Source: a virus
Reading direction: 5' to 3' (one strand)
DNA: 40,546 nt
IMG/VR virus record: IMGVR_UViG_3300045970_000141
Span: 1-40,546 of that record
The position numbers were made by a program, and so were the translations under genes. Shown piece after piece: positions 4,695 to 20,667 of the stretch (positions are counted from its first letter, which is position 1; the number at the start of each line of letters is the position of its first letter). The notes below the pieces were generated by a model. The model was not told the origin of the DNA. It saw nothing but the letters and a program-made list of their open reading frames with translations, and did not search any database.

Positions 4695-6962
4695 CTACTC
4701 CTTCCTTCCGGCGTTCTTGTTGGCGGCCTTGCTCTGGGAGAGCTTCTGGGCGTGCTGTTCCTTCGCCTGCTTCATCGTCATCTCGTGGTTGGCGATGGCC
4801 CGCTCGTGCTCCATGGACGCGCTAGCGTCGTCGAGCAGCATCTTCTTCGTGTCGGCCCGAATCTCGGCCTCGGCCTGACGGGCGCTGATCTCGCCCTCCA
4901 TCTGGGTTTGCTGGAGGGAGGTCTGGGCCTTCTGCTGCTCCACCTCCATGCCGAACATGAGCTTCTTCTGCTCTAGCTGGAGGCCGAACGCCTTAGCCAT
5001 CATCTCCATCTGGAGTTCCTGCTTCCGCATCTGCGCTTCCATCTGCTTGATCGCCATCTCAAGCTGGTTCTTCTGCTGCTGTGCCTGGATGTCGACCTGC
5101 GCCTTCTGCTGATCCATCTGCATCTGGGCAACCATCTTCTGCTGCTCCATCTGCATCTTCTGCTGCTCGGGGTTCGGCTGCGGGTTCTGCTGGGCCTGCT
5201 GCATGACCTGATTTGCGGTGAGCACCATCTGATCCAGCACCCCCTCGATAGTCGCACCGCCACGGAACCCAGCTATCGTCCATTGGAGCACCTGGAGGAG
5301 ATACGGCATCGACCACGGGGCGGCTTCCGCCATCGGGAGCGTGCTCTGGAGGAACTGGGACATCGCCATCAGGAATTCGCTACGCTCCTCCTTCACGGCG
5401 GCCATATCCGCCATGGACACGGACTCCGGCTTCACCTCGATACGGTACTGGTAGAAATCGCTCTTGATCAGGGCGATGGCCTGCTGGGCGCTCTGCTGAT
5501 CCTGCTGCGCGATGTACTGGATGTTGGAGCGCTTGGCGATCGTCTCGGGGTCTACGTGCTTCGAGATGATCTCGGCCTTTAGCGCCTGGATATCGGAGGC
5601 GAACCGTGCAAAATCGTTCTGGAGACGCTGCACCCGCACCGAGGCAAACTTCGCCTTGAGGGACTGTTCGGTGGCCGTCGCTCCTGCGGTCGACTGTCCC
5701 CGCATGATGTCCGACATCCCCGTGATCTGGTAGAGAAGCTGCATCAGTTCCGAGCGGTAATCCCGAAGCACTTGGAGTGCATTCACGATTGCGTCGAGCG
5801 GAAGCCAATCGACCACTCCGGCGAGGCCGCCCTTTTCCTTGAACGCCTCGAATCCCTCGATGCCGATCAGTTCGTTTGCGATCGTCTCGGAGAGCAGGCG
5901 CTTCACGCCCTCGTTCGTCTTGTCGTAGACGCCGCGCACCGCGATGGCGCGCTCCAGGTTGGTGATCCGGGTGGAAACGGCATCCACCTCGTCGTAGATG
6001 TCTTGGGCCAATACGAAATCGGCCCGAGGCATGAACTTGGTGGTGGTGACGTTCGCGACGAGCGGCCTAGGGCACGGGAAGAAGCCGTCCAGTTCGTAGG
6101 GGTCGTCCTTGATGTCGAGGATCTTGTCGAATCCCTTTACCCACCAGTAGACCTTCCGGTCTTCCTTGTTCCAGATTTCCCAGACATCGGCCCGGGACCA
6201 CGGGTCGTTCTTGAGGCCGTCGTTCTCGTCCTTGTTGATGTGCTTCGTGCCGGTCAGCGGGATCTTGTCCCCGTACTCCGGGAACCGCTTTCGCAGTTCG
6301 TCCTTCGTCATCGGAGCCTTGAAGGCTACCCAGCGAACCTCGTCCCACGTGCGGCAGGGCGACCAGCGGAAATCCCGCCAATGCACGTAGTCGGTGTCTA
6401 CGTCCTCTTCCTTCTTGGACGGATCCGGGGTGTAGGCCGGGGCTCCCTTGCGAACCAGGCCGGTAGCCTGGTCGATTGTATCCGGGATGGCCGGAACATC
6501 GTCGTGCTCCTCCCACTCGACCTCGTAGCGCACCCTAGCCTGCCCTAGACCCGGGATAAGCCGGTCTTCGAGGCAGTTCTCCAGAGCGGTCGCGTAGGTG
6601 TCGCTATCCCGCTCGATGTCCGTGTTCAGCATACGCTGGAGGACTTCGCCGCCGATCCGGGCTACGTCGTCGTTCGGATCCGCGAACTTCCGCTTCACAT
6701 CGACCTTCGGCTCCTTGCCGTACATGAGGGCCTGAAGGGTCTGGACGTTGGAGGAGAAGAGGTTGATGCGGGTGTCGCCCTCGCTGCGCTGGTCGTTCCT
6801 CATATCGAGGAACCGCTTGACGGTCTTGTCGCCCGCGTCGATCCAGGGCTGGCTATTGTCGGCCGCCGCCTTCATCTCCACGGACCATTTCGAGGCAATC
6901 CCCTCCGGGCTGTCGTCGAACTGGCGCTCTGACTCGATCTTCTGGCTGTTTTCGACGGTCAC
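4695..6962 (-). CDS. Portal protein (755 aa) with a long Q/M/E/K-rich C-terminal helical extension.
   Basis: Size, position directly after TerL (ATGA overlap at 6959-6962), and general portal-like sequence character. The last ~190 aa are a low-complexity coiled coil. Confidence 0.85.
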   Translation of the reverse strand: MTVENSQKIESERQFDDSPEGIASKWSVEMKAAADNSQPWIDAGDKTVKRFLDMRNDQRSEGDTRINLFSSNVQTLQALMYGKEPKVDVKRKFADPNDDVARIGGEVLQRMLNTDIERDSDTYATALENCLEDRLIPGLGQARVRYEVEWEEHDDVPAIPDTIDQATGLVRKGAPAYTPDPSKKEEDVDTDYVHWRDFRWSPCRTWDEVRWVAFKAPMTKDELRKRFPEYGDKIPLTGTKHINKDENDGLKNDPWSRADVWEIWNKEDRKVYWWVKGFDKILDIKDDPYELDGFFPCPRPLVANVTTTKFMPRADFVLAQDIYDEVDAVSTRITNLERAIAVRGVYDKTNEGVKRLLSETIANELIGIEGFEAFKEKGGLAGVVDWLPLDAIVNALQVLRDYRSELMQLLYQITGMSDIMRGQSTAGATATEQSLKAKFASVRVQRLQNDFARFASDIQALKAEIISKHVDPETIAKRSNIQYIAQQDQQSAQQAIALIKSDFYQYRIEVKPESVSMADMAAVKEERSEFLMAMSQFLQSTLPMAEAAPWSMPYLLQVLQWTIAGFRGGATIEGVLDQMVLTANQVMQQAQQNPQPNPEQQKMQMEQQKMVAQMQMDQQKAQVDIQAQQQKNQLEMAIKQMEAQMRKQELQMEMMAKAFGLQLEQKKLMFGMEVEQQKAQTSLQQTQMEGEISARQAEAEIRADTKKMLLDDASASMEHERAIANHEMTMKQAKEQHAQKLSQSKAANKNAGRKE

Positions 6963-8359
6963 GGGATCCTCTTGCGCTGCGACAGGGAGATGGCTCGATC
7001 GTCGTGAAGCTGGTCGAGCGTGAAGCTCATGTGGATAGGAACCGCATTGGGCTTGGGGGCTACCAGCGTAGGAGCACCTTTCCCTAGCATCTCCGATACC
7101 TTCACTACGGCAGCAGTATACCGGAAAGCGTCAGCGGCGTGGCTCGACCAATCATGGGCGGGTCGTGCCGAGTAGTCGCGGTCATCCTCGTCCCACTCGT
7201 AGTGATAGTTGCGGATGCACTTGATCCCGTCAGCGGTGCGCGGGTGGAAGCGCACGCCCTTCTGGATCATCCATCGAGCGGCCTGAATTCCCTCCAACAG
7301 TGGGAGATCGGGTCCAACCGATACCACTCCAGGGTACTTTCGCAGGAATTGATTGAGAATCGAAACCCCAGCCGCGAGAGTAGTTTGCCGGGCATCATGT
7401 GGAAGCCAGTGGCGTATGTATCGGTACGGTTTCCCGTCGATGACATCGAAATAATGACTAAGCGGTTTCCCGTGCTCTTCGTAAAAATCGATGAGGTCAA
7501 CGCGCCCTCCCTTCACTTGCCAGAACCAGATCACCGTGGAATCGGTGAAGCCAAGATCCCAGCTAGTGAAAACGTCGTCGTAGCCGTGCTCGAAATCGTC
7601 GAGGGCCCCGGTCTTCCCGGCCTCGTCGACGAGATCGCCCCAGACGGAGCCGACGAGGGCGGCTGTCCAGTCACAAAGGTACTCCTGCTTGATGAATGCT
7701 TCTGGCTTCCCGCTCTGACGCTCCTCGGCTAGCGTCTTCTCGGGGTCATACGCACGGGTATCGAAGAGGGTTTTGATGTCGCAATACCAGAGCTTCGGAT
7801 CCGCCTTGGCGCGGTCGAACAGGTCTTTTGCGTGGTTCGCCCCTCTAGGCGTCGTGATGTAGATTTCCCAACCGTCGTTCTCCCGGAGCATAGGGGAGAT
7901 GAGGTTCGTGCTCTTGGGCGAGCAGATGGCGTATTCGGAGTAGACGACACCTACGGGTCCGGCGCCCACGACCTCCACTCGATCTGACCCCAGGAGGCGC
8001 CAGATGCTTCCACACTTGAGTTCCACGACCATCTGCTGCTCGTCCTTGCGCTTGACGATGGACCCGGGTCGCTTCGGGTCCAGAAAACCCGGAAATACGT
8101 TCTCAAGGGTACGCTTTCCTTCCTTGGTGAAGCCCTCCCAGATGGCCTTCCGGGCTTGGGCGAATGTCGGGTAGATGTGCCAGTAGGCGCCCTTCCGCTC
8201 GTGCATCATCTTGCAGGTCTGGTGGAGGGCGGCGAGATCCTTGCCGGAGCGCCGATGCCACACCATCATGCACTTCTTCCCCCCGTTATCCATGAAGTCC
8301 ATGAACGGGATCTGGTAGTCCCGGGGGGTGAAATCGTTGGGTAGGGAGACGTTGATCAT
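6959..8359 (-). CDS. terL: Terminase large subunit (466 aa from the internal ATG).
   Basis: Walker A-like VWHRRSGKD near the N-terminus, size, and position before the portal. I prefer the ATG at 8359 (MINVSLPNDF...) because it forms an ATGA overlap with the upstream stop at 8356-8358. The track start at 8389 would add 10 aa. Confidence 0.88.
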   Translation of the reverse strand: MINVSLPNDFTPRDYQIPFMDFMDNGGKKCMMVWHRRSGKDLAALHQTCKMMHERKGAYWHIYPTFAQARKAIWEGFTKEGKRTLENVFPGFLDPKRPGSIVKRKDEQQMVVELKCGSIWRLLGSDRVEVVGAGPVGVVYSEYAICSPKSTNLISPMLRENDGWEIYITTPRGANHAKDLFDRAKADPKLWYCDIKTLFDTRAYDPEKTLAEERQSGKPEAFIKQEYLCDWTAALVGSVWGDLVDEAGKTGALDDFEHGYDDVFTSWDLGFTDSTVIWFWQVKGGRVDLIDFYEEHGKPLSHYFDVIDGKPYRYIRHWLPHDARQTTLAAGVSILNQFLRKYPGVVSVGPDLPLLEGIQAARWMIQKGVRFHPRTADGIKCIRNYHYEWDEDDRDYSARPAHDWSSHAADAFRYTAAVVKVSEMLGKGAPTLVAPKPNAVPIHMSFTLDQLHDDRAISLSQRKRIP

Positions 8360-9435
8360 ACCCACGCGCTCCCGTTCCAGTAGACCCAAGCCGTGCCGCT
8401 CCAGACCTTGAACGTCTGGTTGATGGCGCCGCCGCCCCCGCTGGTCGCCCGGGCGTAGGCGTCGGAGAGGGTCAGGGTGTCCAGCTGGGTCCGGCCGGAC
8501 GCGACGGAGGCCACCGCTACCGCATAGGCGTCCGACAGGGCGAGGGTGTCTAGCGAGTCTTTGGTTGCTCGGGCGGCGACCGAGTAGGCGTCCGACAGGG
8601 TGAGCGCATCGGACTGGGATCTGCCCCCTGCCGTTGCCGTGGCGGCGGCGTAGGCGTCGGACAGAGCGAGGGTGTCAGCCTGCGAACCCTGCGCGGCCGC
8701 GCTTGCGGCGTAGGCGTCCGACAGCGCCAGCGCCTCCATCTCGGACCTGCTGACCCCTGCCTGCGCGGCATAGAGGTCCGATAGGCTGAGAGTGTCGCTC
8801 TGGCTCCTAGATGCCGCTAGCGCGGCGGCATACAGGTCGGACAGGGTGATGGCGTTCGATTCCGAGCCGGTAGCCGCGAGCGCGGCCGCGTAGAGATCGG
8901 ACAGGGCCAGCGTTTCCGCTTGAGATCTCGCCGCCGCAACGCTGGCTAGGTAGGCGTCCGACAAGACGAGCGCGTCGGACTCGGCCCCTGCGTATCCCAG
9001 AGCTACTGCGTATAGGTCGGAAAGCGCCAGGCTTTCCGCCAGGCTCGCGCTAGCCCCGGATCCACTAAAGGCGCTAGCGTATGTGTCCGATAGAACTAGG
9101 GTGTCGCTAGAGCTGCCGCTATACGAGATGGCGGCAGAGTAGCCGTCTGCCAGGGTGATAAGCTCAGCGCCAGCCCCAACTAGGCGGACGCTAGCCGAGT
9201 AGCTATCGGAGATAACCAGCGTCTCGGCTTGGGAGCCCTGCGCGGCTGCCCCTGCTGCGTAGGTGTCGGTGAGGGTGATGGTCTGGGCTGCCAGAGCAAC
9301 CCCGACCACCATGATCACCGCATAGGCGTCCGAGAGGGCTAGCGTCTCGGTAACTGCCCCGCTATCCCCCCCACCGCCGCCACCACCGGGGACTCCGGTC
9401 TGGAAGGCGTTGGGCTGGAAAGCGTTCTGCTGCAA
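8356..9435 (-). CDS. Tandem-repeat protein (359 aa). Poly-Gly N-terminus, 15 copies of a ~20-aa unit (..TLxLSDxYAAxxA..), and an aromatic C-terminal tail.
   Basis: A single uninterrupted ORF. I counted 15 repeat units by hand. The apparent start is TTG at 9433-9435, 3 nt after the methyltransferase stop. Its stop overlaps the TerL ATG. Confidence 0.75.
   Translation of the reverse strand: MQQNAFQPNAFQTGVPGGGGGGGDSGAVTETLALSDAYAVIMVVGVALAAQTITLTDTYAAGAAAQGSQAETLVISDSYSASVRLVGAGAELITLADGYSAAISYSGSSSDTLVLSDTYASAFSGSGASASLAESLALSDLYAVALGYAGAESDALVLSDAYLASVAAARSQAETLALSDLYAAALAATGSESNAITLSDLYAAALAASRSQSDTLSLSDLYAAQAGVSRSEMEALALSDAYAASAAAQGSQADTLALSDAYAAATATAGGRSQSDALTLSDAYSVAARATKDSLDTLALSDAYAVAVASVASGRTQLDTLTLSDAYARATSGGGGAINQTFKVWSGTAWVYWNGSAWV
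8425..9351. repeat. About 60-bp periodic degenerate tandem DNA repeat (the coding repeat of the gene above).
   Basis: Recurrent cores such as gcgtaggcgtccgacag.gcgagggtgtc alternate with variable ~30-nt segments, all in one reading frame. Confidence 0.85.
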
Positions 9436-11850: not shown

Positions 11851-12447
11851 TTAGGCCATCGACAGAGAGGCGGTCACCGACAGGGTGGACGGGTTGGCGG
11901 CCTGGAGGGAGGCGAACGTCCCGTAGGCGTAGAGGCGAACGTCGGCGGAAGCCGCGCCCGTCCCGCAGGCGGCCGAGGTGTAGAAGAGCACACCCGCGCC
12001 GCTGATCGTCTGGACGGCGGTGATCCCGTAGGAGGCCGTTGCCGAGAAGAGCTGGGTGCCGGTATCGCCCGCCGCCGTGGCGGCGGTGGCGAAGGTGATG
12101 GCCGGGATCGACGCCCCGTAGCCCGTCACCTGGGAGCCGTTGATGTTCGACCAGACGGCGCTGGCGTTGGTGGTGGCCGAGGCCGAGTGGAGGAAGAGGA
12201 AGGCGTTGGAGTTCGAGGCCCAGCTTGCGAAGAGCCGGTTGCCGACCAGCGCCCGCCCCTGGTGGACGACGAGGTTGTGCGGCATATGGCCCGAGGCGAT
12301 CATCTCGGGCTTGCCGTCCGGGCCGGGGGCCCAGAGTTGCGCGTCCATCTTGAAGTAGGGCATCTCCAGCGCGTCGCCGGAATTGCTTCCGCCGTGGACG
12401 ATCTGGGCCTCGTACTTGTCGGTCAGGTTCAGCTTCTCGCTAGCCAT
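11851..12447 (-). CDS. Hypothetical beta-rich virion-associated protein (198 aa from the internal ATG).
   Basis: The ATG at 12447 (MASEKLNL...) has a GGAGAG SD and follows the upstream stop at 12464. The N-terminal 38 aa of the track ORF overlap the upstream gene and are rejected. Confidence 0.6.
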   Translation of the reverse strand: MASEKLNLTDKYEAQIVHGGSNSGDALEMPYFKMDAQLWAPGPDGKPEMIASGHMPHNLVVHQGRALVGNRLFASWASNSNAFLFLHSASATTNASAVWSNINGSQVTGYGASIPAITFATAATAAGDTGTQLFSATASYGITAVQTISGAGVLFYTSAACGTGAASADVRLYAYGTFASLQAANPSTLSVTASLSMA

Positions 12448-13131: not shown

Positions 13132-13513
13132 CTTCGGGGCTCACCTCGATAGCAGGAAGGGCCCTTCGCATCGTATTCACGATGACCTGGACCCCGATGT
13201 CACCCCCGAACTCTTGCTTCGGCTGGGGCACGGTGAACTGAGCCTTCAGCTTGATGGCCGCTAGCTGCGCCATCGCGTTTCTCTGGGGATTATTGATGAT
13301 TTCTTGCAGCGTGTCAAAGTCATCCTGGGTAAGCCCGAGCCGAGCCTTCACCTCATCCTCGGAAAGCGCCTTCAGTTCGGCCACCCGGTCCTTCGCCCTC
13401 CGCTTCGACTCCTGGCGTAGCGCGGAACTGAGCACACGCGCCGCGTCCGCTTCCGGCCCCTCCGCCGTAGCCAGCCGCCCCGACCCCTTCGCTTGGCCCC
13501 TGCCAGCCATCAA
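13112..13513 (-). CDS. First gene of the late operon (133 aa). Hypothetical; alternative small-terminase candidate.
   Basis: A strong SD (TAGGGAGG) lies 5 nt before the ATG at 13513. It is basic and helical. No family recognised. Confidence 0.6.
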   Translation of the reverse strand: MMAGRGQAKGSGRLATAEGPEADAARVLSSALRQESKRRAKDRVAELKALSEDEVKARLGLTQDDFDTLQEIINNPQRNAMAQLAAIKLKAQFTVPQPKQEFGGDIGVQVIVNTMRRALPAIEVSPEDAEPGE

Positions 13514-13963
13514 AACCTCCCTAAGACAAGACTATCACCAAAAGCTAGCTAGTACGGAACGCTACTTGTCTAGCCGAAGGTTTAAGGCTCTTAACACGCA
13601 GCCGGAGCGTTAGCGGAGGCTGGCCGAGGCTCTTGGCCGAGGCGAGGTGAGCGAAGCGAACTGTCTTTGTCACGCCGATCTACATACGTTCTAGATCCGC
13701 ACGCGCGAGCATGGACCTTCCGAAGATCGCTTGTCAATCCCCAATAAGGATGGTTTTAACAACCTGCCTAGACGCCTAGAGCTTTCTAGCTTCGGGCGTA
13801 CCCCCAAAGGGGTAAACCCGTTTCAAGCGATTTTTGGGTAGTGGGAAGGGGCCCACCTTTTCAATCTCCGATCGATCCGGGATGACCCCGGGGGGCGGGT
13901 CCGTCCACTCGCGCCCTGCCGCCGCGTAGCCCTGGCCATACACTACGTGACCATACATACAGC

Positions 13964-14021
13964 CTAGCCTAGCGTGCCTAGTCTAGCGCCTAGCCTAGCT
14001 AGCCTAGCCTAGCTAGCCTAG
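13964..14021. repeat. Dense CTAG / (G)CCTAG(C) microsatellite-like array.
   Basis: I counted 11 CTAG tetramers in 58 bp (starts 13964, 13969, 13978, 13983, 13990, 13995, 13999, 14004, 14009, 14013, 14018). Three more lie at 14043, 14084 and 14100. Confidence 0.9.
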
Positions 14022-14148
14022 CGCCTACCCCGCGCCCCGGACCTAGCGTGCCGATCGTAGCTGGGGAAGAGCGTCTATCCGAGCTAGCGTCCAGTCTCCC
14101 TAGCCTACCATATCCCTGTAACCGGGGAAGTTACACCCTAACCGTGCC

Positions 14149-14194
14149 TGCCGTAAAACGTCACCCCAAAATTGTCATGTGCCGTAAATGGTCA
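14149..14194. promoter_or_regulatory. Pair of 15-bp boxes (TGCCGTAAAACGTCA at 14149, TGCCGTAAATGGTCA at 14180) spaced 31 bp apart, upstream of early operon 1.
   Basis: The direct repeat is visible in the sequence. Each box matches a box at 21715/21746 at 12 of 15 positions. Confidence 0.55.
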
Positions 14195-14317
14195 CCGCTT
14201 GTTGCCCGATAGACCCTGATTTCCTTCGGGTTTGTTGGGTCGTTCCTTGGCTCGTGGCCTGCATATCCTATGGACGGGCAATCAAGCCCCGGCCGAAAGG
14301 CTCGAAAGGGAACGACG

Positions 14318-14629
14318 ATGGAAGCGAGAAAGAGCGTAATCAAGATGGCGCCGCACGCGAGGGGGAAGCGCGTATGGCTACAGGGGGCGTGGCTCGTCAA
14401 GTATGGCTTCGGCCGGGGCACGCCGATCAAGGTGACGATCGACGCTTCGGGCATGGTGATCGAGGCGGATGCGGCAGGGGATAGGCGCGTAGCTGGGAAG
14501 GACGTTCAACCGATCATCGACGTTATCGGCTCGGCAGTGTCGGCCGCATTCCCCGAAGCGTTCGCGCTGGTAGTAGTTACGCCGGGCATGATCACGGTCG
14601 CCCCCTCGACTGAGAAGGGGGCGATCTAG
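14318..14629 (+). CDS. AbrB/SpoVT/SymE-like swapped-hairpin domain protein (103 aa). Putative early regulator.
   Basis: The segment RVWLQGAWLVKYGFGRGTPIKVTIDASGMVIEA matches the l.G.WL...GF..G..v.V......vi pattern of SymE/AbrB-type domains. I prefer the ATG at 14318 because of the AAGGGA SD. The track start at 14270 remains possible. Confidence 0.6.
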   Translation: MEARKSVIKMAPHARGKRVWLQGAWLVKYGFGRGTPIKVTIDASGMVIEADAAGDRRVAGKDVQPIIDVIGSAVSAAFPEAFALVVVTPGMITVAPSTEKGAI

Positions 14630-14631
14630 CC

Positions 14632-14811
14632 ATGGCAATCCACAAAATGACCCCTGACGACGCTACGCGAATCCTCGACTCCATGAGGGAAGAGGCATAC
14701 GAAAGCCACGACAGGGAGCGCGAAGAGCAGATCGAAATGCTCGCCCTGTACCTGTCCCGCATGGAAGCCACGATCCGGCGCATCGCCAGCGCGATCAAGG
14801 GGGAGGAGTAG
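14632..14811 (+). CDS. Small acidic helical protein (59 aa). Not in the ORF track because it is under 60 aa.
   Basis: My hand translation is MAIHKMTPDDATRILDSMREEAYESHDREREEQIEMLALYLSRMEATIRRIASAIKGEE. It is flanked on both sides by TAG-CC-ATG junctions. Confidence 0.6.
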   Translation: MAIHKMTPDDATRILDSMREEAYESHDREREEQIEMLALYLSRMEATIRRIASAIKGEE

Positions 14812-14813
14812 CC

Positions 14814-16019
14814 ATGGCTTTCACCGCGAAGGAATCGGGAACCTGTACGCGCTGCAACGGAGAGATCAACGTTGGGGATCAGATCGTCATCTATAACCGG
14901 CCAAAGCCCCGTAGCCTGTTTCACGCCACGTGCCCCGACGAGGGTCGGCACACTCCCCCCGGTGTGGAGGGTCCGGAGGGCGAGCAGGAGGGTCAGGGAG
15001 GCAAGGGAAGGGGCGAGCAGGGCGAGCAGGAGGGCGAGGGTCAGGGCGAGGGTCAGGGCGAGCAGGAGGGCGAGGGCGAGCAGGAGGGAAGCGACAAGCC
15101 CCCCACGATCGACGCCATGATCGACGAGAAGGTTAAGGCTCGCGTCAAGGTCGAGATCGCAAAGGTAAAGGTTCCAGGTGGCGCCCCTACCCGGATCGAG
15201 ATCGTTCCCGTACAGGGTCCGCCGATCGACGTTACAGAAGATCACCCAGACGTTCCTCGGGTGATCAGGCTCTTCATGGCTGGCCTGTTTCCCTACCTCT
15301 GGGGGGATGCGGGGACGGGAAAGACCACTGCGCTTATGCGCGCTGCTACCATTCTCGGCGAAATGCAGGGCCGCACGATCGGCATGGAAATCGATACCCT
15401 CGATCGCTCTACCCCCCGATCAGCGATCCTCGGATACCGCACCCCTAACGGGGATCCGGTCCAGACCCCCTTTACCAGTAGCTACACCAACGGCGGGCTT
15501 CTCATTCACGACGAAATGGATAACGCCCCTGCATACGTTCAATCGATCCTTAACACTGCGCTGGCTAACGGGCATTCGCCTAGCGCGTGGGGCACGATCA
15601 AGCGGAACGCGGATTTCTTCTACTGTGCCGCTGGCAACACGCCATTCCGTCCTACGCCTAGGTTCCCCGATCGCTTGCCCGGATCGTTCGCCTACATGGA
15701 TCGGCTCTATTTCCTCCACTGGGAGCTAGACCAGAACATCGAACGGCGGGCTTGTGGGCGCCCTCCGGTCAAGCGTCAGGCTCGCAAGGTCGAAACCTGC
15801 TCGGCCGCAAGTTGGGGCGCGTGGGTCGAAGAGGTTAGGGAGTGGACCCGGGTCAACACCCCCACCATCCAGGTGACGCCTAGGGCGACGTTCGCGGGCT
15901 TGAAGGCACTGTCTGCAGGGGAGACGCCCCTCGAAGTAGCTCATGGCCTGATCTTCCGGGGGGCTGATAGCGCCCTGACGGGCAAGATCCTCGCAGCTAA
16001 CCCCTTGCCGAAGAGCTAG
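14814..16019 (+). CDS. AAA+ ATPase (MoxR/CobS/AAA_5-like) with an N-terminal CxxC..HxxC zinc finger and a (G/E/Q)n linker (401 aa).
   Basis: Walker A WGDAGTGKTT and Walker B LLIHDEMDNA. N-terminal C11-x2-C14-x22-H37-x2-C40. A low-complexity GEQ tract spans aa 51-92 (nt 14964-15089). Confidence 0.8.
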   Translation: MAFTAKESGTCTRCNGEINVGDQIVIYNRPKPRSLFHATCPDEGRHTPPGVEGPEGEQEGQGGKGRGEQGEQEGEGQGEGQGEQEGEGEQEGSDKPPTIDAMIDEKVKARVKVEIAKVKVPGGAPTRIEIVPVQGPPIDVTEDHPDVPRVIRLFMAGLFPYLWGDAGTGKTTALMRAATILGEMQGRTIGMEIDTLDRSTPRSAILGYRTPNGDPVQTPFTSSYTNGGLLIHDEMDNAPAYVQSILNTALANGHSPSAWGTIKRNADFFYCAAGNTPFRPTPRFPDRLPGSFAYMDRLYFLHWELDQNIERRACGRPPVKRQARKVETCSAASWGAWVEEVREWTRVNTPTIQVTPRATFAGLKALSAGETPLEVAHGLIFRGADSALTGKILAANPLPKS

Positions 16020-16021
16020 CC

Positions 16022-16864
16022 ATGGAACGAGGCAAGGGAAGCGACAAGACGTACCCTAGCTGGGGAGAGTACCTCCAAGCGGCAAGGGCGATCGACCCTG
16101 ACGCTTCCAGTACAGGCCACAAGGATAGGGATGCGAAGGAATGGGCTGGTGCGGCTTGCATCGGAGACGCGCTCAAGATCGCCGATCTGGGATGGGCGGA
16201 TGGGGCGCGTTTGGTGTCCGAAGTTAGCGCCCCTATCGTGGACCGGATCTCTAGCTCGCATATGGAAATCGGGGGGTGGGGGTGGGATGTCACTGGCGCC
16301 GATTTCGACGTAGGCGAGCTAATGACGGGCACCCCTGAGTGCTGGCTAACGCCTAACGAGATGCAGGCTAAGCCCGTGATCACGATCTCAGCCAACGTCA
16401 CTACCTCGGCCGGAATTCCTGCTCGCATGATCGAGCTAAGGGGAGCGGCCGTAGTGGCGCTAACCCTCGCCCTGCAAGCGGCCGGATACATCGTCCGAGT
16501 CTACAAGATCGAAGGCTATCCCGTAGGGTGGGGGAGCGAGCCGACGTTTCACCGCGCTTGCCTTTCGGACGATCAAGGGGGCCCGCTAGATACCGATCGC
16601 CTACTCTTCGCGCTGGCACACCCGGCTGCCGCTAGGCAAATCGGCTATTGCCTCGGCGCCATCCAAGGGGGAGGCAATCCCGGATCGCCCTTGGGAATGC
16701 CTAGCGACCCCCCTAAAGCGCTTGGCTGGCACGGGGATATCTACCTTCCGGCCGCGCTTAACAGTGACGCAAATTGGAACGACGAGGAAAGCGTATCCAG
16801 GTGGGTCGAAGGCCAGTATGAACGATTGACCGCTCCCCCGAAGGACGATCCGATCGGCACGTAG
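16022..16864 (+). CDS. Partner protein of the AAA+ ATPase (280 aa). Hypothetical; possibly a degenerate vWA-like fold.
   Basis: It is coupled to the ATPase by a TAG-CC-ATG junction. A central strand-helix-strand segment (VITISANVTTSAG...AVVALTLALQAAGYIVRVY) resembles a vWA core without a clear MIDAS motif. This is a weak call. Confidence 0.6.
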   Translation: MERGKGSDKTYPSWGEYLQAARAIDPDASSTGHKDRDAKEWAGAACIGDALKIADLGWADGARLVSEVSAPIVDRISSSHMEIGGWGWDVTGADFDVGELMTGTPECWLTPNEMQAKPVITISANVTTSAGIPARMIELRGAAVVALTLALQAAGYIVRVYKIEGYPVGWGSEPTFHRACLSDDQGGPLDTDRLLFALAHPAAARQIGYCLGAIQGGGNPGSPLGMPSDPPKALGWHGDIYLPAALNSDANWNDEESVSRWVEGQYERLTAPPKDDPIGT

Positions 16865-16876
16865 CTACAAGGCGAA

Positions 16877-16898
16877 ACGCCCCAGCTACAAGGGGCGT
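16877..16898 (+). other. Intercistronic stem-loop (7-bp GC stem, 8-nt loop) without a U-tract.
   Basis: ACGCCCC (16877-16883) pairs with GGGGCGT (16892-16898). Flanked by a duplicated GCTACAAGG. Confidence 0.4.
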
Positions 16899-16954
16899 AG
16901 GGGTGTCATGCGCCCCCTGACGAGCCTAGTCAGTAACCTAGAAAGGGAACAAAC

Positions 16955-17653
16955 ATGGAACAGGCAATTCAAGCGGGACTGGCACTAGACCTTACCGTCC
17001 GAGTGACAGGAGGAATTGAGTACAAGCGTCGAACGATCAAGAGCGAATGGCGCGAAGGGGGGGCCAAGGTCGAAGAATGGGAAACGGAGAAGATCACCCG
17101 TAACCCCGAAGAGCACGCGAAAGCGGTAAAGGTTCGAGCCGACGTTAGGAATTCCATCACTCGCCTTTGCGCCCGTACCCCGATCGGCGATCTCCTGCTC
17201 GTGCCCCCCGATCAAGAGGATAAGATCCGGATCGCGCTGGACGCCGCTAGCGCCATGATCGACGCTCACAATTCGAAGGCAACCCACCATTACGTTGTGC
17301 TGGGGTGCGTCCCTTCTAGGCTCGTTCCGGACGATCGCTGGACGCTCCGATCGATCTCAGGGGAGATCATGGCTACCCTCGGCATGATGGAAGCTGGGAT
17401 AGCCGGGGCGAACGTGGAGCGCATTCGCGAGGCATCCGATAGCGCTTGCAAGATCCTGCCGATGCTTACCCCTGCCGCTAGCAAGGCGATCGGGCTCGCG
17501 ATCGAAGAGGCAAGGCGTGCCGCTCGCGAGATCACCCGGAGGATCATCAAGGGCAACGAGGATCCGATCGATGTTATCCCCGAGATCCAGGAGCGGTCTA
17601 GCGCGATCGACGCGGCGAAGGTCACGTTCCTGGATAACGAAGGGAAGGGCTAG
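16955..17653 (+). CDS. Hypothetical protein (232 aa).
   Basis: ORF track. AAAGGGA SD upstream. Ends in a TAG-CC-ATG junction. Confidence 0.7.
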   Translation: MEQAIQAGLALDLTVRVTGGIEYKRRTIKSEWREGGAKVEEWETEKITRNPEEHAKAVKVRADVRNSITRLCARTPIGDLLLVPPDQEDKIRIALDAASAMIDAHNSKATHHYVVLGCVPSRLVPDDRWTLRSISGEIMATLGMMEAGIAGANVERIREASDSACKILPMLTPAASKAIGLAIEEARRAAREITRRIIKGNEDPIDVIPEIQERSSAIDAAKVTFLDNEGKG

Positions 17654-17655
17654 CC

Positions 17656-17865
17656 ATGCCTACGATCCGATTCTCCCCCTTCAAATCGATCGCCCCTACG
17701 TGGGTCGAGGGGCTTGCGCTGGCGCATATCCCTAGGCTCGGATGGCGCTTCGTCGACGTTACTACGGGCATGGAATCGATCTCATGCGTGGGGGAAACCT
17801 ACCGTACCCGGATGGAAGCACTCGCAGACCTGGATCGGTATAACCGAGAAATCTGGGGAGGCTAG
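17656..17865 (+). CDS. Hypothetical protein (69 aa).
   Basis: ORF track. Starts from a TAG-CC-ATG junction. Confidence 0.6.
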   Translation: MPTIRFSPFKSIAPTWVEGLALAHIPRLGWRFVDVTTGMESISCVGETYRTRMEALADLDRYNREIWGG

Positions 17866-17866
17866 C

Positions 17867-17959
17867 GTGGGTCCATACCAGACGCTCGCGATCTTCCTCG
17901 CGCCCTTCGTTCTACTGTCCCTCTGGCAAGCGTTCGGGCCCGACAGGGGAGACTACTAG
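17867..17959 (+). CDS. Micro-ORF encoding a 30-aa single-pass hydrophobic peptide.
   Basis: A GTG lies 1 nt after the upstream TAG. Translation is (M)GPYQTLAIFLAPFVLLSLWQAFGPDRGDY. It ends in a TAG-CC-ATG junction. Confidence 0.45.
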   Translation: MGPYQTLAIFLAPFVLLSLWQAFGPDRGDY

Positions 17960-17961
17960 CC

Positions 17962-18051
17962 ATGGAACACCACCTTGCCCGGGTCTACCTCGGGATCCTG
18001 CTCGAAACCGTGATCCTTTACGCCGTGATCCTGTTTCTGGTATCGCTCTAG
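17962..18051 (+). CDS. Micro-ORF encoding a 29-aa hydrophobic peptide.
   Basis: Translation is MEHHLARVYLGILLETVILYAVILFLVSL. It is the last ORF before the terminator. Confidence 0.45.
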   Translation: MEHHLARVYLGILLETVILYAVILFLVSL

Positions 18052-18102
18052 ACTCTAGCGGTCCCCGATCGGGTCCGTTCCCTTCCCTCCGGGGATACCG
18101 CG

Positions 18103-18139
18103 CCCCCCACTGGAATCGTCCGGTGGGGGGTCTTTCTTT
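18103..18139 (+). terminator. Rho-independent terminator of early operon 1.
   Basis: CCCCCCAC (18103-18110) pairs with GTGGGGGG (18123-18130) over a 12-nt loop, followed by TCTTTCTTT. Confidence 0.75.
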
Positions 18140-18222
18140 GCCCTAGGACGCACGCAAGCCCTCCGGGGATACCGGCGCACCCCTTATGCGGCTTGCGTGG
18201 CTATACGGGGCACTGGCGCGTT

Positions 18223-18534
18223 CTAGCGCGGTCCCTTGATAGCTTCCCGCAAGCGCCCGATCGCCCCTGCTACATCTTCGAGAGCGTCCACGACGCGCCT
18301 ATCCCGGATGGCGCTTCCCTCGGACGGGCCATCCAGTGCTGCTCGGTCGCGTAACAGCCGGTTCAGACGCTCCCCGTGCCTATCCTCGAAACCCAGGATA
18401 ACGCCCATCTGGGAGTCTCCCGCTAGGTCCACCAGGAACGTATCGAGCGCGGCTAGGTACTGGGCCCTGGATCCGAGTCTAGCGTTTGGCGTGCCCATCC
18501 GATCGCGCTCCCCTGGATCGCTAGGCTTTCGCAT
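18223..18534 (-). CDS. Hypothetical protein (103 aa).
   Basis: ORF track. Last gene of the leftward replication block. Confidence 0.55.
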   Translation of the reverse strand: MRKPSDPGERDRMGTPNARLGSRAQYLAALDTFLVDLAGDSQMGVILGFEDRHGERLNRLLRDRAALDGPSEGSAIRDRRVVDALEDVAGAIGRLREAIKGPR

Positions 18535-19743: not shown

Positions 19744-20667
19744 CTAGTCGTCATCCTGCTCGGCATCACACCAGGGAGCGGGAACCTGAATCGGCGGGTC
19801 CACTTGGATCGGTTCGGGATTCTCGGGCGTACTGGTCCGGTCATCCCAGCGGCACTCGGAGATCGACGAGTAGGGCTTCCACAGGTGGTAGAAGTAGGCG
19901 CCATTCGGGATATCAGCGTCTCCCTGTCGGATATGCCGCTTCTCCGCGATGATGCACACGCGGGCGATCTGCTCGATCTGGCCTGAGTTTTCGATGTCGG
20001 AGAGAACTGGCCGTACTTGGTCAGGGTTTTCGCTCTGGGATCTGCGCCTATCCCAATCGCGGTTCAGCTGGGTCATGGCGACGACCAGACACTCGGCCTT
20101 GCGCTGGGAAGCCCGAATCATGCGGAGGCCGTCCCCCATCACCTCGAACTTCTGGCCCTTGTCGTATGCGATCTCTCCCAGGTGGTCGATCAGCACGACG
20201 CTGTTCTTCGAGGCCATCTCGATCTTCTCGCAGACCTCGGCCACGTAGGGCTTTTCCATCCAGACCGTCCGGATATTCATCCACTTGTCCATCCGGTCTT
20301 TCGGGATACGGTCGATGATGTCGTCGAGCGTCCCCGACCGATACGCCGCCTGGACTTGGGGGAGCGGCGTTCTGGCTAGCACCGCGATAGCCCGCATATC
20401 GAACTCGGTTTCGTCGTCCTCTAGCCAGAACACGTTTACCTTGCGCCCGGTAAGCGCGATGTTGACGGCGAAGCGCACGGCGGTCGCGGTCTTGCCGTGG
20501 GAGGTTCTGGCGGCAATCACGCATAACTTGTGGCGCGGCAGGCCACCGTTCAGGATCTTGTCGAGCGTCCCGATCCCGGTGGGAATCAGGGGTGGAACCT
20601 CGATCTCCCCCGACCGGATTCTCGGGGCGTCCTGCTTCATCTGCATGATCCTGCGATAGCTGTTCAT
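19744..20667 (-). CDS. dnaB: DnaB-like replicative helicase, RecA-type C-terminal domain only (307 aa).
   Basis: The pattern TGIGTLDKILNGGLPRHKLCVIAARTSHGKTATA contains Walker A. VVLIDHLGE is Walker B-like, and LSDIENSGQIEQIARV is the DnaB signature. Confidence 0.85.
   Translation of the reverse strand: MNSYRRIMQMKQDAPRIRSGEIEVPPLIPTGIGTLDKILNGGLPRHKLCVIAARTSHGKTATAVRFAVNIALTGRKVNVFWLEDDETEFDMRAIAVLARTPLPQVQAAYRSGTLDDIIDRIPKDRMDKWMNIRTVWMEKPYVAEVCEKIEMASKNSVVLIDHLGEIAYDKGQKFEVMGDGLRMIRASQRKAECLVVAMTQLNRDWDRRRSQSENPDQVRPVLSDIENSGQIEQIARVCIIAEKRHIRQGDADIPNGAYFYHLWKPYSSISECRWDDRTSTPENPEPIQVDPPIQVPAPWCDAEQDDD

Follow-up and report, generated by a model that had tools for sequence, protein, structure and literature searches.

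The 40,546-nucleotide stretch of viral DNA analysed here, referred to as the window, is IMG/VR virus record IMGVR_UViG_3300045970_000141, a phage genome in which portal, large terminase, tail, amidase, DnaB-like helicase and RusA genes are present. At positions 14,814 to 16,864 it carries two adjacent genes on the plus strand, the first (ORF1, for open reading frame) encoding a 401-residue protein in which a small zinc finger and a low-complexity linker precede a MoxR-class AAA+ ATPase, and the second (ORF2) encoding a 280-residue protein of the family DUF7192. Together they constitute a variant of the MoxR-vWA kind of module (vWA, von Willebrand factor A) and belong to a widespread, unstudied phage gene pair. 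A first-pass annotation had read the same DNA as a PARP-like, nick-sensing zinc finger fused to a MoxR/CobS-like ATPase with a coupled partner, a reading that is partly supported, being right on the ATPase and the partner and wrong on membership of the PARP family. The features of the two genes, with the evidence that defines them, are as follows.

14814..16019, plus strand: ORF1, gene for the zinc-finger/linker/MoxR-class AAA+ ATPase, 401 residues (ORF listing, AAA_5, phrog_249, homologues, AlphaFold, Foldseek)
14814..14939, plus strand: N-terminal CCHC mini zinc finger, residues 1-42 (ligand pattern, conservation and predicted local distance difference test, pLDDT)
14940..15098, plus strand: disordered acidic linker, residues 43-95 (pLDDT and composition; a Gly/Glu/Gln tract at 14964-15089 lies inside it)
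15108..15230, plus strand: pre-AAA helix (residues 99-117) and a short beta segment before the ATPase (model secondary structure, conserved block)
15231..16016, plus strand: AAA+ module (motif positions, invariance among homologues, model, clade of Foldseek matches)
16022..16864, plus strand: ORF2, gene for the DUF7192 partner, 280 residues, a putative cryptic, truncated vWA/CobT-C-like adaptor (Pfam, phrog_1909, AlphaFold, Foldseek)
16259..16375, plus strand: candidate 'shaft' or 'finger' of ORF2, residues 80-118, beginning HMEIGGWGWDVTGADFDVGELMTGTPECW... (by position only)
16376..16831, plus strand: predicted vWA-like alpha/beta core of ORF2, residues 119-270 (order of strands and helices in the model)

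The ATPase and its linked gene

ORF1, whose ATG is preceded by a GGAGGAG Shine-Dalgarno sequence, is a MoxR-class AAA+ ATPase with a complete set of catalytic motifs. The Walker A motif (GDAGTGKTT, residues 164-172, nucleotides 15303-15329) and the Walker B motif (LLIHDEMD, residues 229-236, nucleotides 15498-15521) are followed by sensor 1 (N275, within 15627-15644), two candidates for the arginine finger (R287, within 15663-15686, and R297, within 15696-15710) and sensor 2 (R357, within 15876-15890). Across an alignment of 27 ORF1 homologues the Walker motifs, N275, R287, D296-R297 and R357 are all invariant, as are H144 and R149 in a conserved block, xIEIxR...AHYLMPRL. Among curated models, AAA_5 (PF07728), with which the first-pass annotation had proposed to compare the protein, is matched at 25.5 bits against a Pfam cut-off of 22, and relatives score higher (59.7 bits for gp88 of Tunturiibacter phage Tunturi_4 and 51.2 bits for gp136 of Mycobacterium phage Krypton555).

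The AlphaFold model of ORF1 (mean pLDDT 83.7) has a helix at residues 99-117 and a confident AAA+ module, and its first Foldseek match in the PDB is CbbQ (6l1q, 8.9e-10), ahead of NorQ (9qh8, 2e-9) and the MoxR protein CHU_0153 (2r44, 2e-8). Together with the AAA_5 match, this bears out the proposed MoxR/CobS-like core with Walker A and B motifs. Later Foldseek matches, to MCM, Rea1 (midasin), NtrC and ComM, all fall in the helix-2-insert clade. From this clade and the secondary structure of the model, two inserts could be assigned, a helix-2 insert hairpin at residues 205-218 (15426-15467) and a pre-sensor-1 insert hairpin at residues 254-265 (15573-15608). Two other lines were followed and set aside. 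A sequence-profile search of the PDB with the families yielded only P-loop-level matches for the ATPase, its top scores, to RecA and polyubiquitin, being discarded as sums over tandem-repeat constructs. A DnaI-like helicase loader, which also combines a zinc domain with an AAA+ domain, was ruled out, the ORF1 fold being of the MoxR clade and not of the initiator/loader clade; the variation of the replication genes near the pair from phage to phage disfavours it further.

Close relatives of ORF1 number 69 in a search of 5.8 billion proteins, at 39-85% identity and all metagenomic, and relatives were reached solely by protein-level searches, a blastn comparison of the 2-kb region with the phage collection having returned nothing. 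At all 17 loci with readable upstream DNA, from a linkage set to which IMG/VR and metagenome scans contributed 18 loci, the ATPase gene lies upstream of the DUF7192 gene on the same strand, directly adjacent to it in 16 and separated from it by one small gene in Krypton555. Neighbourhood analysis of the loci found no third conserved gene beside the pair: the 232-residue downstream gene of the window trails it in the two closest related loci only (L010 and L016), and the two small upstream genes, of 119 and 59 residues, are not kept beside it in other loci.

Cultured phages that carry the pair include Tunturi_4 (gp88/gp87), Krypton555 (gp136/gp134) and other cluster-L phages, Rhizobium phage P106B (gp25/gp22) and Listeria phage LP-Mix_6.1 of the Herelleviridae (HUK29_0156-0158), and searches with the ATPase by itself also gave matches in Gordonia phages (e.g. 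Sephiroth gp135) and in 236 Staphylococcus phage records. These cultured pairs consist of the same two families in the same order as in the window, and Tunturi_4 gp88 and Krypton555 gp136 also open with Cys/His clusters followed by a low-complexity linker. They differ from the window pair in sequence (30-34% identity or less), in the intervening gene of Krypton555, and in that those of P106B and the Listeria phage are fingerless. No copy of DUF7192 turned up when 185,579 reference genomes were scanned by pattern. The genes of the pair are annotated as 'porphyrin biosynthesis', 'AAA-ATPase' or 'hypothetical protein', and our literature search found no paper naming DUF7192 and no functional study of the pair or of its Herelleviridae or cluster-L homologues. 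The possibility, allowed for in the first-pass annotation, that the two genes are a CobS/CobT-like duo common among phages thus has substance, the pair being a widespread phage duo related to the CobS/CobT kind. In LP-Mix_6.1 (L024, 3342-4358) the annotation divides the CobS-like ATPase between two consecutive ORFs, 238 and 97 residues long, and to judge from this layout the gene may be split or frameshifted; an 845-nucleotide DUF7192 gene follows it (32.8 bits against a cut-off of 27).

The DUF7192 partner

ORF2 matches DUF7192 (PF23822) at 82.6 bits (cut-off 27; 3.9e-23), this being the only Pfam family found at E <= 1, and it also falls in phrog_1909; 40 homologues were found, on contigs whose lengths agree with those carrying the homologues of ORF1. 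The first-pass annotation had guessed at a degenerate vWA-type partner and proposed a comparison with vWA profiles. At the level of sequence the guess finds no signal, there being no match of ORF2 to Pfam VWA and a probability of 0.4% when 41 DUF7192 sequences are compared by hhalign with a Pfam-confirmed VWA protein of a related phage. At the level of fold it holds up better. The top four Foldseek matches of the AlphaFold model of ORF2 (pLDDT 87; predicted TM-score, pTM, 0.84) in the PDB are the NorD vWA chains of NorQ-NorD complexes (E = 0.012-0.1, probability 0.60-0.63, TM 0.22-0.29), with weaker matches to F1-gamma, vWF A1 and the Ku80 vWA domain. Among viral models in BFVD the 12 best matches are DUF7192 proteins (including those of Krypton555, Gordonia phage Syleon and Lactobacillus phage 3-521), and the next block consists mostly of phage CobT/vWA proteins (E = 1.1e-3 to 5e-2, probability up to 1.0, TM up to 0.41).

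The model begins with a strand (residues 7-11) and a helical part (14-79), passes through the segment 80-118 and continues with a strand (119-125), a helix, two strands, two helices, a strand and a helix. The resulting core, beta1-alpha1-beta2-beta3-alpha2/3-beta4-alpha4, has four strands, whereas the vWA fold is six-stranded and Rossmann-like. At the position after beta1 that corresponds to the MIDAS, the metal-ion-dependent adhesion site, ORF2 reads NVTTS (16394-16408) and other members of the family NIVSS, HTGSG or DLGLR, with no column invariant. The invariant residues of the core lie elsewhere (RG at 140-141, D183, GGP at 186-188, D190, R193, H200 and R205). A further dense run of invariant or nearly invariant residues (W86, D89-A93, D96, G98, G103 and P105-W108) occupies the segment 80-118 between the helical N-terminal part and beta1, and this same segment has the lowest confidence in the model (pLDDT 52-72). 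Being conserved and yet of low confidence, it fits an element that becomes ordered only on binding.

Two structural precedents bear on this segment. The finger of NorD enters the pore of NorQ (PMC13036017), and the C-terminal domain of CobT has the order beta0-alpha0'-alpha0-shaft-VWA, its shaft entering the CobS ring (bioRxiv 10.64898/2026.07.21.739949). ORF2 repeats the order beta0-helices-shaft-VWA, in which residues 80-118 would, by position only, be a candidate counterpart of the CobT-type shaft. On the grounds of fold, architecture and gene linkage, and not of sequence, we infer that DUF7192 is a shortened, MIDAS-less relative of the CobT/NorD cofactor domain.

The likeness to NorQ-NorD and CbbQ-CbbO extends over the best structural matches of both proteins, the arrangement as two adjacent genes and a cofactor element placed for the pore. 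Ordinary cofactors of this kind (NorD, CbbO and CobT) carry a target-binding domain of their own and a linker. The partner described here has only about 280 residues, without an N-terminal target-binding domain or linker, and combines a four-stranded core and a non-conserved MIDAS with the absence of any VWA signal in its sequence. Unlike NorQ and CbbQ, ORF1 bears a zinc finger on a disordered tether, and it is encoded in a phage genome and not in a metalloenzyme operon.

An alternative, and the one implied by the annotation 'porphyrin biosynthesis', is that the pair is an auxiliary metabolic cobaltochelatase motor of the CobS/CobT type that hijacks the CobN of the host to boost cobalamin. ORF1 does belong to phrog_249 (1.3e-16), the PHROG of phage CobS-like ATPases that bears this label, and its homologues in cultured phages are annotated likewise; outside DUF7192, the viral proteins closest to ORF2 in structure are phage CobT proteins, and cobST clusters are common in tailed viruses, where they have been proposed to act with host CobN (PMC8651126). 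The label, however, was inherited through remote-homology clustering and not from a test, and no NCBIfam family, the CobS equivalogs included, is found at E <= 1 for ORF1 or ORF2, so that by curated models ORF1 is not CobS. Further, the partner has 280 residues against the 637 of CobT and lacks both the M48C-like N-domain and the linker of that protein, its sheet is truncated and its MIDAS not conserved, there is no link to CobN, and a chelatase has no use for an ATPase that bears a zinc finger or a topoisomerase-type ribbon. A role in cobalamin synthesis is unlikely given the missing NCBIfam match and the unconserved MIDAS, and the chelatase explanation as a whole we regard as highly improbable.

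Two observations concern relatives of the partner. Two phages, L002 and L003, that carry a version of the pair with a topoisomerase-type zinc ribbon in place of the finger also encode a separate, canonical VWA protein of 270 residues (VWA_4 at 3.7e-12, VWA at 2.1e-6), whose gene adjoins that of a PD-(D/E)XK nuclease about 6 kb downstream (the stretches concerned are 15020-16721 in L002 and 10884-12585 in L003). In addition, a metagenomic protein of 267 residues from a 1668-nucleotide contig (P0114) consists of a DUF7192 body fused to the first half of a CCHC finger, 31 residues (MATARYAGSCTRCGGAIEPGDIVSFYNRPRP); from its sequence, it looks as though the entire ATPase had been deleted from between the two genes, if the protein is not an assembly chimera.

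The zinc finger, its tether and its replacements

ORF1 begins MAFTAKESGTCTRCNGEINVGDQIVIYNRPKPRSLFHATC, and the ligands C11, C14, H37 and C40 form at nucleotides 14844-14933 exactly the pattern C-x2-C-x22-H-x2-C that the first-pass annotation had given. In an alignment of 19 fingers the four ligands vary little or not at all (the histidine is replaced by cysteine in two), and residues 1-40 are folded in the AlphaFold model (pLDDT 83-92), such that these features are not due to chance. The folded part ends near residue 42, where the disordered linker follows.

The resemblance to PARP/Lig3-type fingers claimed in that annotation would, if it reflected true membership, make this a nick-sensing finger that recruits the ATPase to DNA breaks. 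PARP fingers span some 85-90 residues with the pattern C-x2-C-x28-30-H-x2-C. With the fingers of PARP1 and DNA ligase III the ORF1 finger has in common the CCHC order and similar residues around both pairs of ligands, in the form of the flanking motifs A-K/R-x-x-G-x-C-x-x-C-x-x-x-I-x-x-G and aromatic-H-x-x-C, and the Tunturi_4 homologue even combines a longer spacer (x37) with a W-H-x-x-C motif. We compared the finger profile by hhalign with PARP1 F1, PARP1 F2 and the LIG3 finger, whose sequences were verified against the PDB, as was that of a LIM first finger. All four ligands were brought into register in this comparison, at a probability of 54% (P = 1.3e-4), and its score, 23.5, exceeded that of ligand-preserving column shuffles (11.8 +/- 2.7), only one of 200 of which reached it, as well as that of the LIM first finger (score 17, probability 26%). 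On these sequence comparisons, the PARP-like look of the finger would go beyond ligand spacing.

Nevertheless, the finger lies outside the zf-PARP family, failing on the hidden Markov model (HMM), on length and on spacer. PF00645, the profile named for comparison in the first-pass annotation, was matched in no scan, whether of full ORF1 (E <= 1), of the 19 isolated fingers (E <= 10) or of the N-terminus of Tunturi_4 gp88, and the 25 families that occur most often in 78 further proteins with the finger do not include it. A HMMER search of the PDB with the finger profile lists LIM half-domains (E = 0.02-0.1) and contains no chain of PARP or Lig3 up to E = 10. The finger is half as long as that of PARP1 or LIG3, lacks the C-terminal part of the PARP fold, has a loop of 6 residues where PARP has a longer base-stacking loop and a spacer of 22 residues where PARP has 28-30, and, when single PARP fingers are taken, only F2 scores well. 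We therefore retain from the earlier claim a likeness at the level of motifs, and consider a genuine PARP/Lig3-type nick sensor very doubtful.

The nearest Pfam models are instead DUF7837 (2.3e-4) and, in a relative, DUF2175 (3.7e-7), both matched below threshold and both uncharacterised archaeal CCHC fingers, with scattered matches to Prok-RING_1 and LIM among the fingers. When 1.84 billion cluster representatives were searched with the finger profile, 282 proteins of 45 to 1275 residues were found at E <= 1e-3, in which the finger stands mostly at the extreme N-terminus and is often duplicated. Domains that co-occur with it include AAA_5 (12 of the 78 scanned) and DUF6011 (11 of 78), and a cluster look-up returned only the name 'hypothetical protein'. 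Judged by this distribution, the finger is a mobile, uncurated small CCHC zinc module. The first-pass annotation had also envisaged that the N-terminus might belong to a different, common zinc family: it does belong to a fairly common family of small fingers (282 clusters), which appears to have no curated model. In many free-standing proteins of 55-110 residues (P0137, P0140, P0162, P0174 and others) the same CCHC finger stands at the N-terminus and a second Cys-rich motif comes after it, the DUF6011 that Pfam assigns in the 11 proteins just mentioned; other proteins have two or three fingers in tandem.

The linker that tethers the finger has, over residues 43-95, a pLDDT below 50 and a composition of 18 Gly, 15 Glu and 8 Gln in 53 residues. 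Within it lies the 42-residue Gly/Glu/Gln tract of the first-pass annotation (residues 51-92, nucleotides 14964-15089), present as described and encoded by an imperfect 18/36-nucleotide tandem repeat; across a slightly wider window of 58 residues the net charge is about -13. An antisense ORF across the finger and linker (14592-15245, minus strand, 217 residues) has a leucine/alanine-rich translation and was dismissed as an artefact of GC-rich repeat composition. Low-complexity linkers are a general property of the family: in 55 of its ATPases they measure 36-110 residues (median 63) and vary in composition, being mostly acidic in the group with CCHC fingers and near neutral in the group with ribbons.

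These ribbons provide the main clue to what the finger may do. Pattern matching on the 69 close ATPases identified about 25 as CCHC-type and about 26 as C4. Most of the C4 proteins match the topoisomerase-I zinc ribbon in its CxxC...G.F..CS..P.C form, and this ribbon is known from DNA-binding proteins. Nine of the homologues listed, a distant relative among them, have a precomputed PF01396 assignment, and for one the source gives the name 'ssDNA-binding Zn-finger/Zn-ribbon topoisomerase 1'. About one sister ATPase in three thus has a topoisomerase-I-type ribbon at the N-terminal position where ORF1 has its CCHC finger, with a comparable linker behind it. The two modules are not alignable, but as occupants of the same place they are probably functionally interchangeable. 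Since sister ATPases swap in a ribbon of DNA-binding proteins, the target of the finger would be nucleic acid or nucleoprotein, and domain swapping makes it most likely that the finger docks the motor onto a nucleic acid or a nucleoprotein complex. That the pairs of P106B and the Listeria phage are finger-free indicates that the finger is accessory to a core machine of two proteins.

The same evidence can be turned towards a protein target, in which case the machine would be unchanged and the finger a LIM/RING-type adaptor recruiting a soluble host protein, the whole acting as an anti-defence or host-takeover effector with no nucleic-acid step. LIM halves and Prok-RING_1 are among the nearest profile matches, a linker as acidic as this one speaks against its coming close to DNA, the finger recurs at the N-terminus of many small proteins unrelated to one another, in the mobile manner expected of a recruitment tag, and the genes lie in the early, non-structural part of the genome. 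However, the module that replaces the finger in sister proteins is a known DNA-binding one, PADLOC finds no match for ORF1 or ORF2, and no known anti-defence family was matched. On this balance we hold the adaptor explanation to be unlikely.

A model for the pair and its genomic setting

The best explanation in our view, which we hold with moderate confidence, is that the two genes form a phage module in which a MoxR-AAA+ motor with a tethered finger works with a vWA-derived pore-plug cofactor, in a compact and rearranged form of the known systems, to remodel a DNA-associated complex. By analogy with NorQ-NorD and CobS-CobT, ORF1 would form a hexameric ring, and we infer ATP hydrolysis on the same basis. 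The DUF7192 partner would bind the concave face of this ring, its segment 80-118 reaching into the pore to lie against the helix-2 insert hairpins. Hydrolysis of ATP would then twist or pull on the partner, and the fingers, of which there could be as many as six, would keep the motor at its target by their long tethers. In such an arrangement the target-binding role, for which the 280-residue partner has no domain, would have moved from the cofactor to the ATPase. Because the pair opens an operon, or stands close to its start, and lies on the side of the genome given to replication and not to structural genes, the remodelling may take place early or in mid-infection and, more speculatively, act on a DNA-associated complex of host or phage proteins.

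Several points weigh against this explanation. The vWA assignment is weak and made at the level of fold only, with TM-scores of 0.24-0.41 and with F1-gamma and PRTase folds also among the weak PDB matches of ORF2, and the hhalign comparison with a canonical VWA protein likewise speaks against it. Insertion of a shaft into the pore is pure analogy, and the timing of expression is deduced from gene position only. The finger, moreover, has no strongly basic character, the linker attached to it is very acidic, its nearest profile matches (LIM, Prok-RING, DUF2175) include protein-binding fingers, and there are members of the pair, in P106B and the Herelleviridae, without any finger.

A more specific proposal, which we consider unlikely, is that the pair represents a class of phage effector not recognised before, in which the motor is docked on DNA or a DNA structure by its tethered CCHC or topoisomerase-type fingers and strips DNA-bound proteins with a minimal pore plug, the PARP-like signal then reflecting a true, distant kinship with damage-sensing fingers. 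Candidate targets of such a motor would be host nucleoid proteins, stalled complexes or DNA-sensing defence proteins.

The pair might alternatively be a chaperone of virion assembly or maturation. Viral MoxR-vWA pairs that act on structural proteins have precedents: p618 of Acidianus two-tailed virus is a MoxR-type ATPase and virion component that did not bind DNA and whose activity is raised by its vWA partner p892 (PMC4124505), and a MoxR-vWA pair has been proposed for jumbo phages (PMC7824862). In the window the ORF1/ORF2 operon abuts the structural module, from which it is divergently transcribed, and in P106B a head-morphogenesis gene lies near the pair, on the other strand. The pair is, however, never found within a block of structural genes. 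On related contigs it comes first in an operon whose small genes give way to genes for a primase/helicase and nucleases, and in Tunturi_4 the genes of a processivity factor and a methyltransferase are found downstream of it. The likeness to p618/p892 also stops at a viral MoxR ATPase with a vWA partner, as p618 has a C-terminal extension and no zinc finger and its partner is a large, canonical vWA protein, which leaves the finger and ribbon modules unexplained. We judge a chaperone of this type quite improbable.

The pair occurs in many phage lineages (soil metagenomic phages, cluster-L mycobacteriophages and Rhizobium, Tunturiibacter and Listeria Herelleviridae phages), where it is annotated either as 'porphyrin biosynthesis' or as an AAA-ATPase with a hypothetical protein; the label 'porphyrin biosynthesis' is probably wrong and inflates counts of viral 'auxiliary metabolic genes'. 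To see DUF7192 as a stripped-down cofactor of the CobT/NorD type would give the family its first mechanistic model, that of a pore-inserting shaft. The known work of MoxR systems is mostly the insertion of metals and the maturation of enzymes, and interchangeable zinc modules, in pointing to a nucleic-acid or nucleoprotein target, would extend them. The pair is amenable to study in phages of M. smegmatis.

In the window, the structural module lies on one side of the pair (portal at 4695-6962, large terminase at 6959-8389, tail genes and amidase) and replication genes on the other (DnaB-like helicase at 19744-20667, methyltransferase and RusA), and it is from gene position only that the label 'early operon' can be given. 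Beyond the pair, the operon comprises the following.

14270..14811, plus strand: two small upstream genes (119 and 59 residues), each joined onward by TAGCCATG
16955..18131, plus strand: downstream genes (232 residues, phrog_11021; 69 residues) and a terminator-like hairpin at 18102-18131

The octamer TAGCCATG, made up of a stop codon, CC and a start codon, occurs in eight copies in the window, at 12441, 14627, 14809, 16017, 17651, 17957, 22350 and 25284, and those at 14627, 14809, 16017 and 17651 are four successive stop-start junctions of the ORF1/ORF2 operon, whose genes are accordingly tightly packed. ORF2 begins 2 nucleotides past the stop codon of ORF1, and from this spacing the two may be translationally coupled, as the first-pass annotation had stated. 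The junction is often extended as CTAGCCATGG, and the core CTAGCC is common to the junctions and to intergenic repeats; the tetranucleotide CTAG is not depleted in this genome (174 observed, 140 expected).

The first gene of the operon (14270-14629, 119 residues) has a sub-threshold match to the SymE toxin/AbrB-like family PF08845 (2.3e-5, 24.8 bits against a cut-off of 29) and, going by this similarity, may encode a small DNA-binding regulator. Upstream of it, the intergenic region 13957-14112 holds an array of CCTAG/CTAGC-based repeats, with near-perfect palindromes CTAGCCTAGCTAGCCTAG at 13990-14021 and degenerate copies that reach 14112, and a separate 17-nucleotide direct repeat, TGCCGTAAA.GTCACC, is found at 14149 and 14180. 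Such repeats could be operator, promoter or origin elements; a search of 13400-18300 found no sigma-70-like promoter. At the far end, the hairpin at 18102-18131 is strong, with 13 pairs of which 9 are G-C followed by a T-rich tail, and it sits between the end of the rightward operon and convergent leftward genes that start at 18223-18534.

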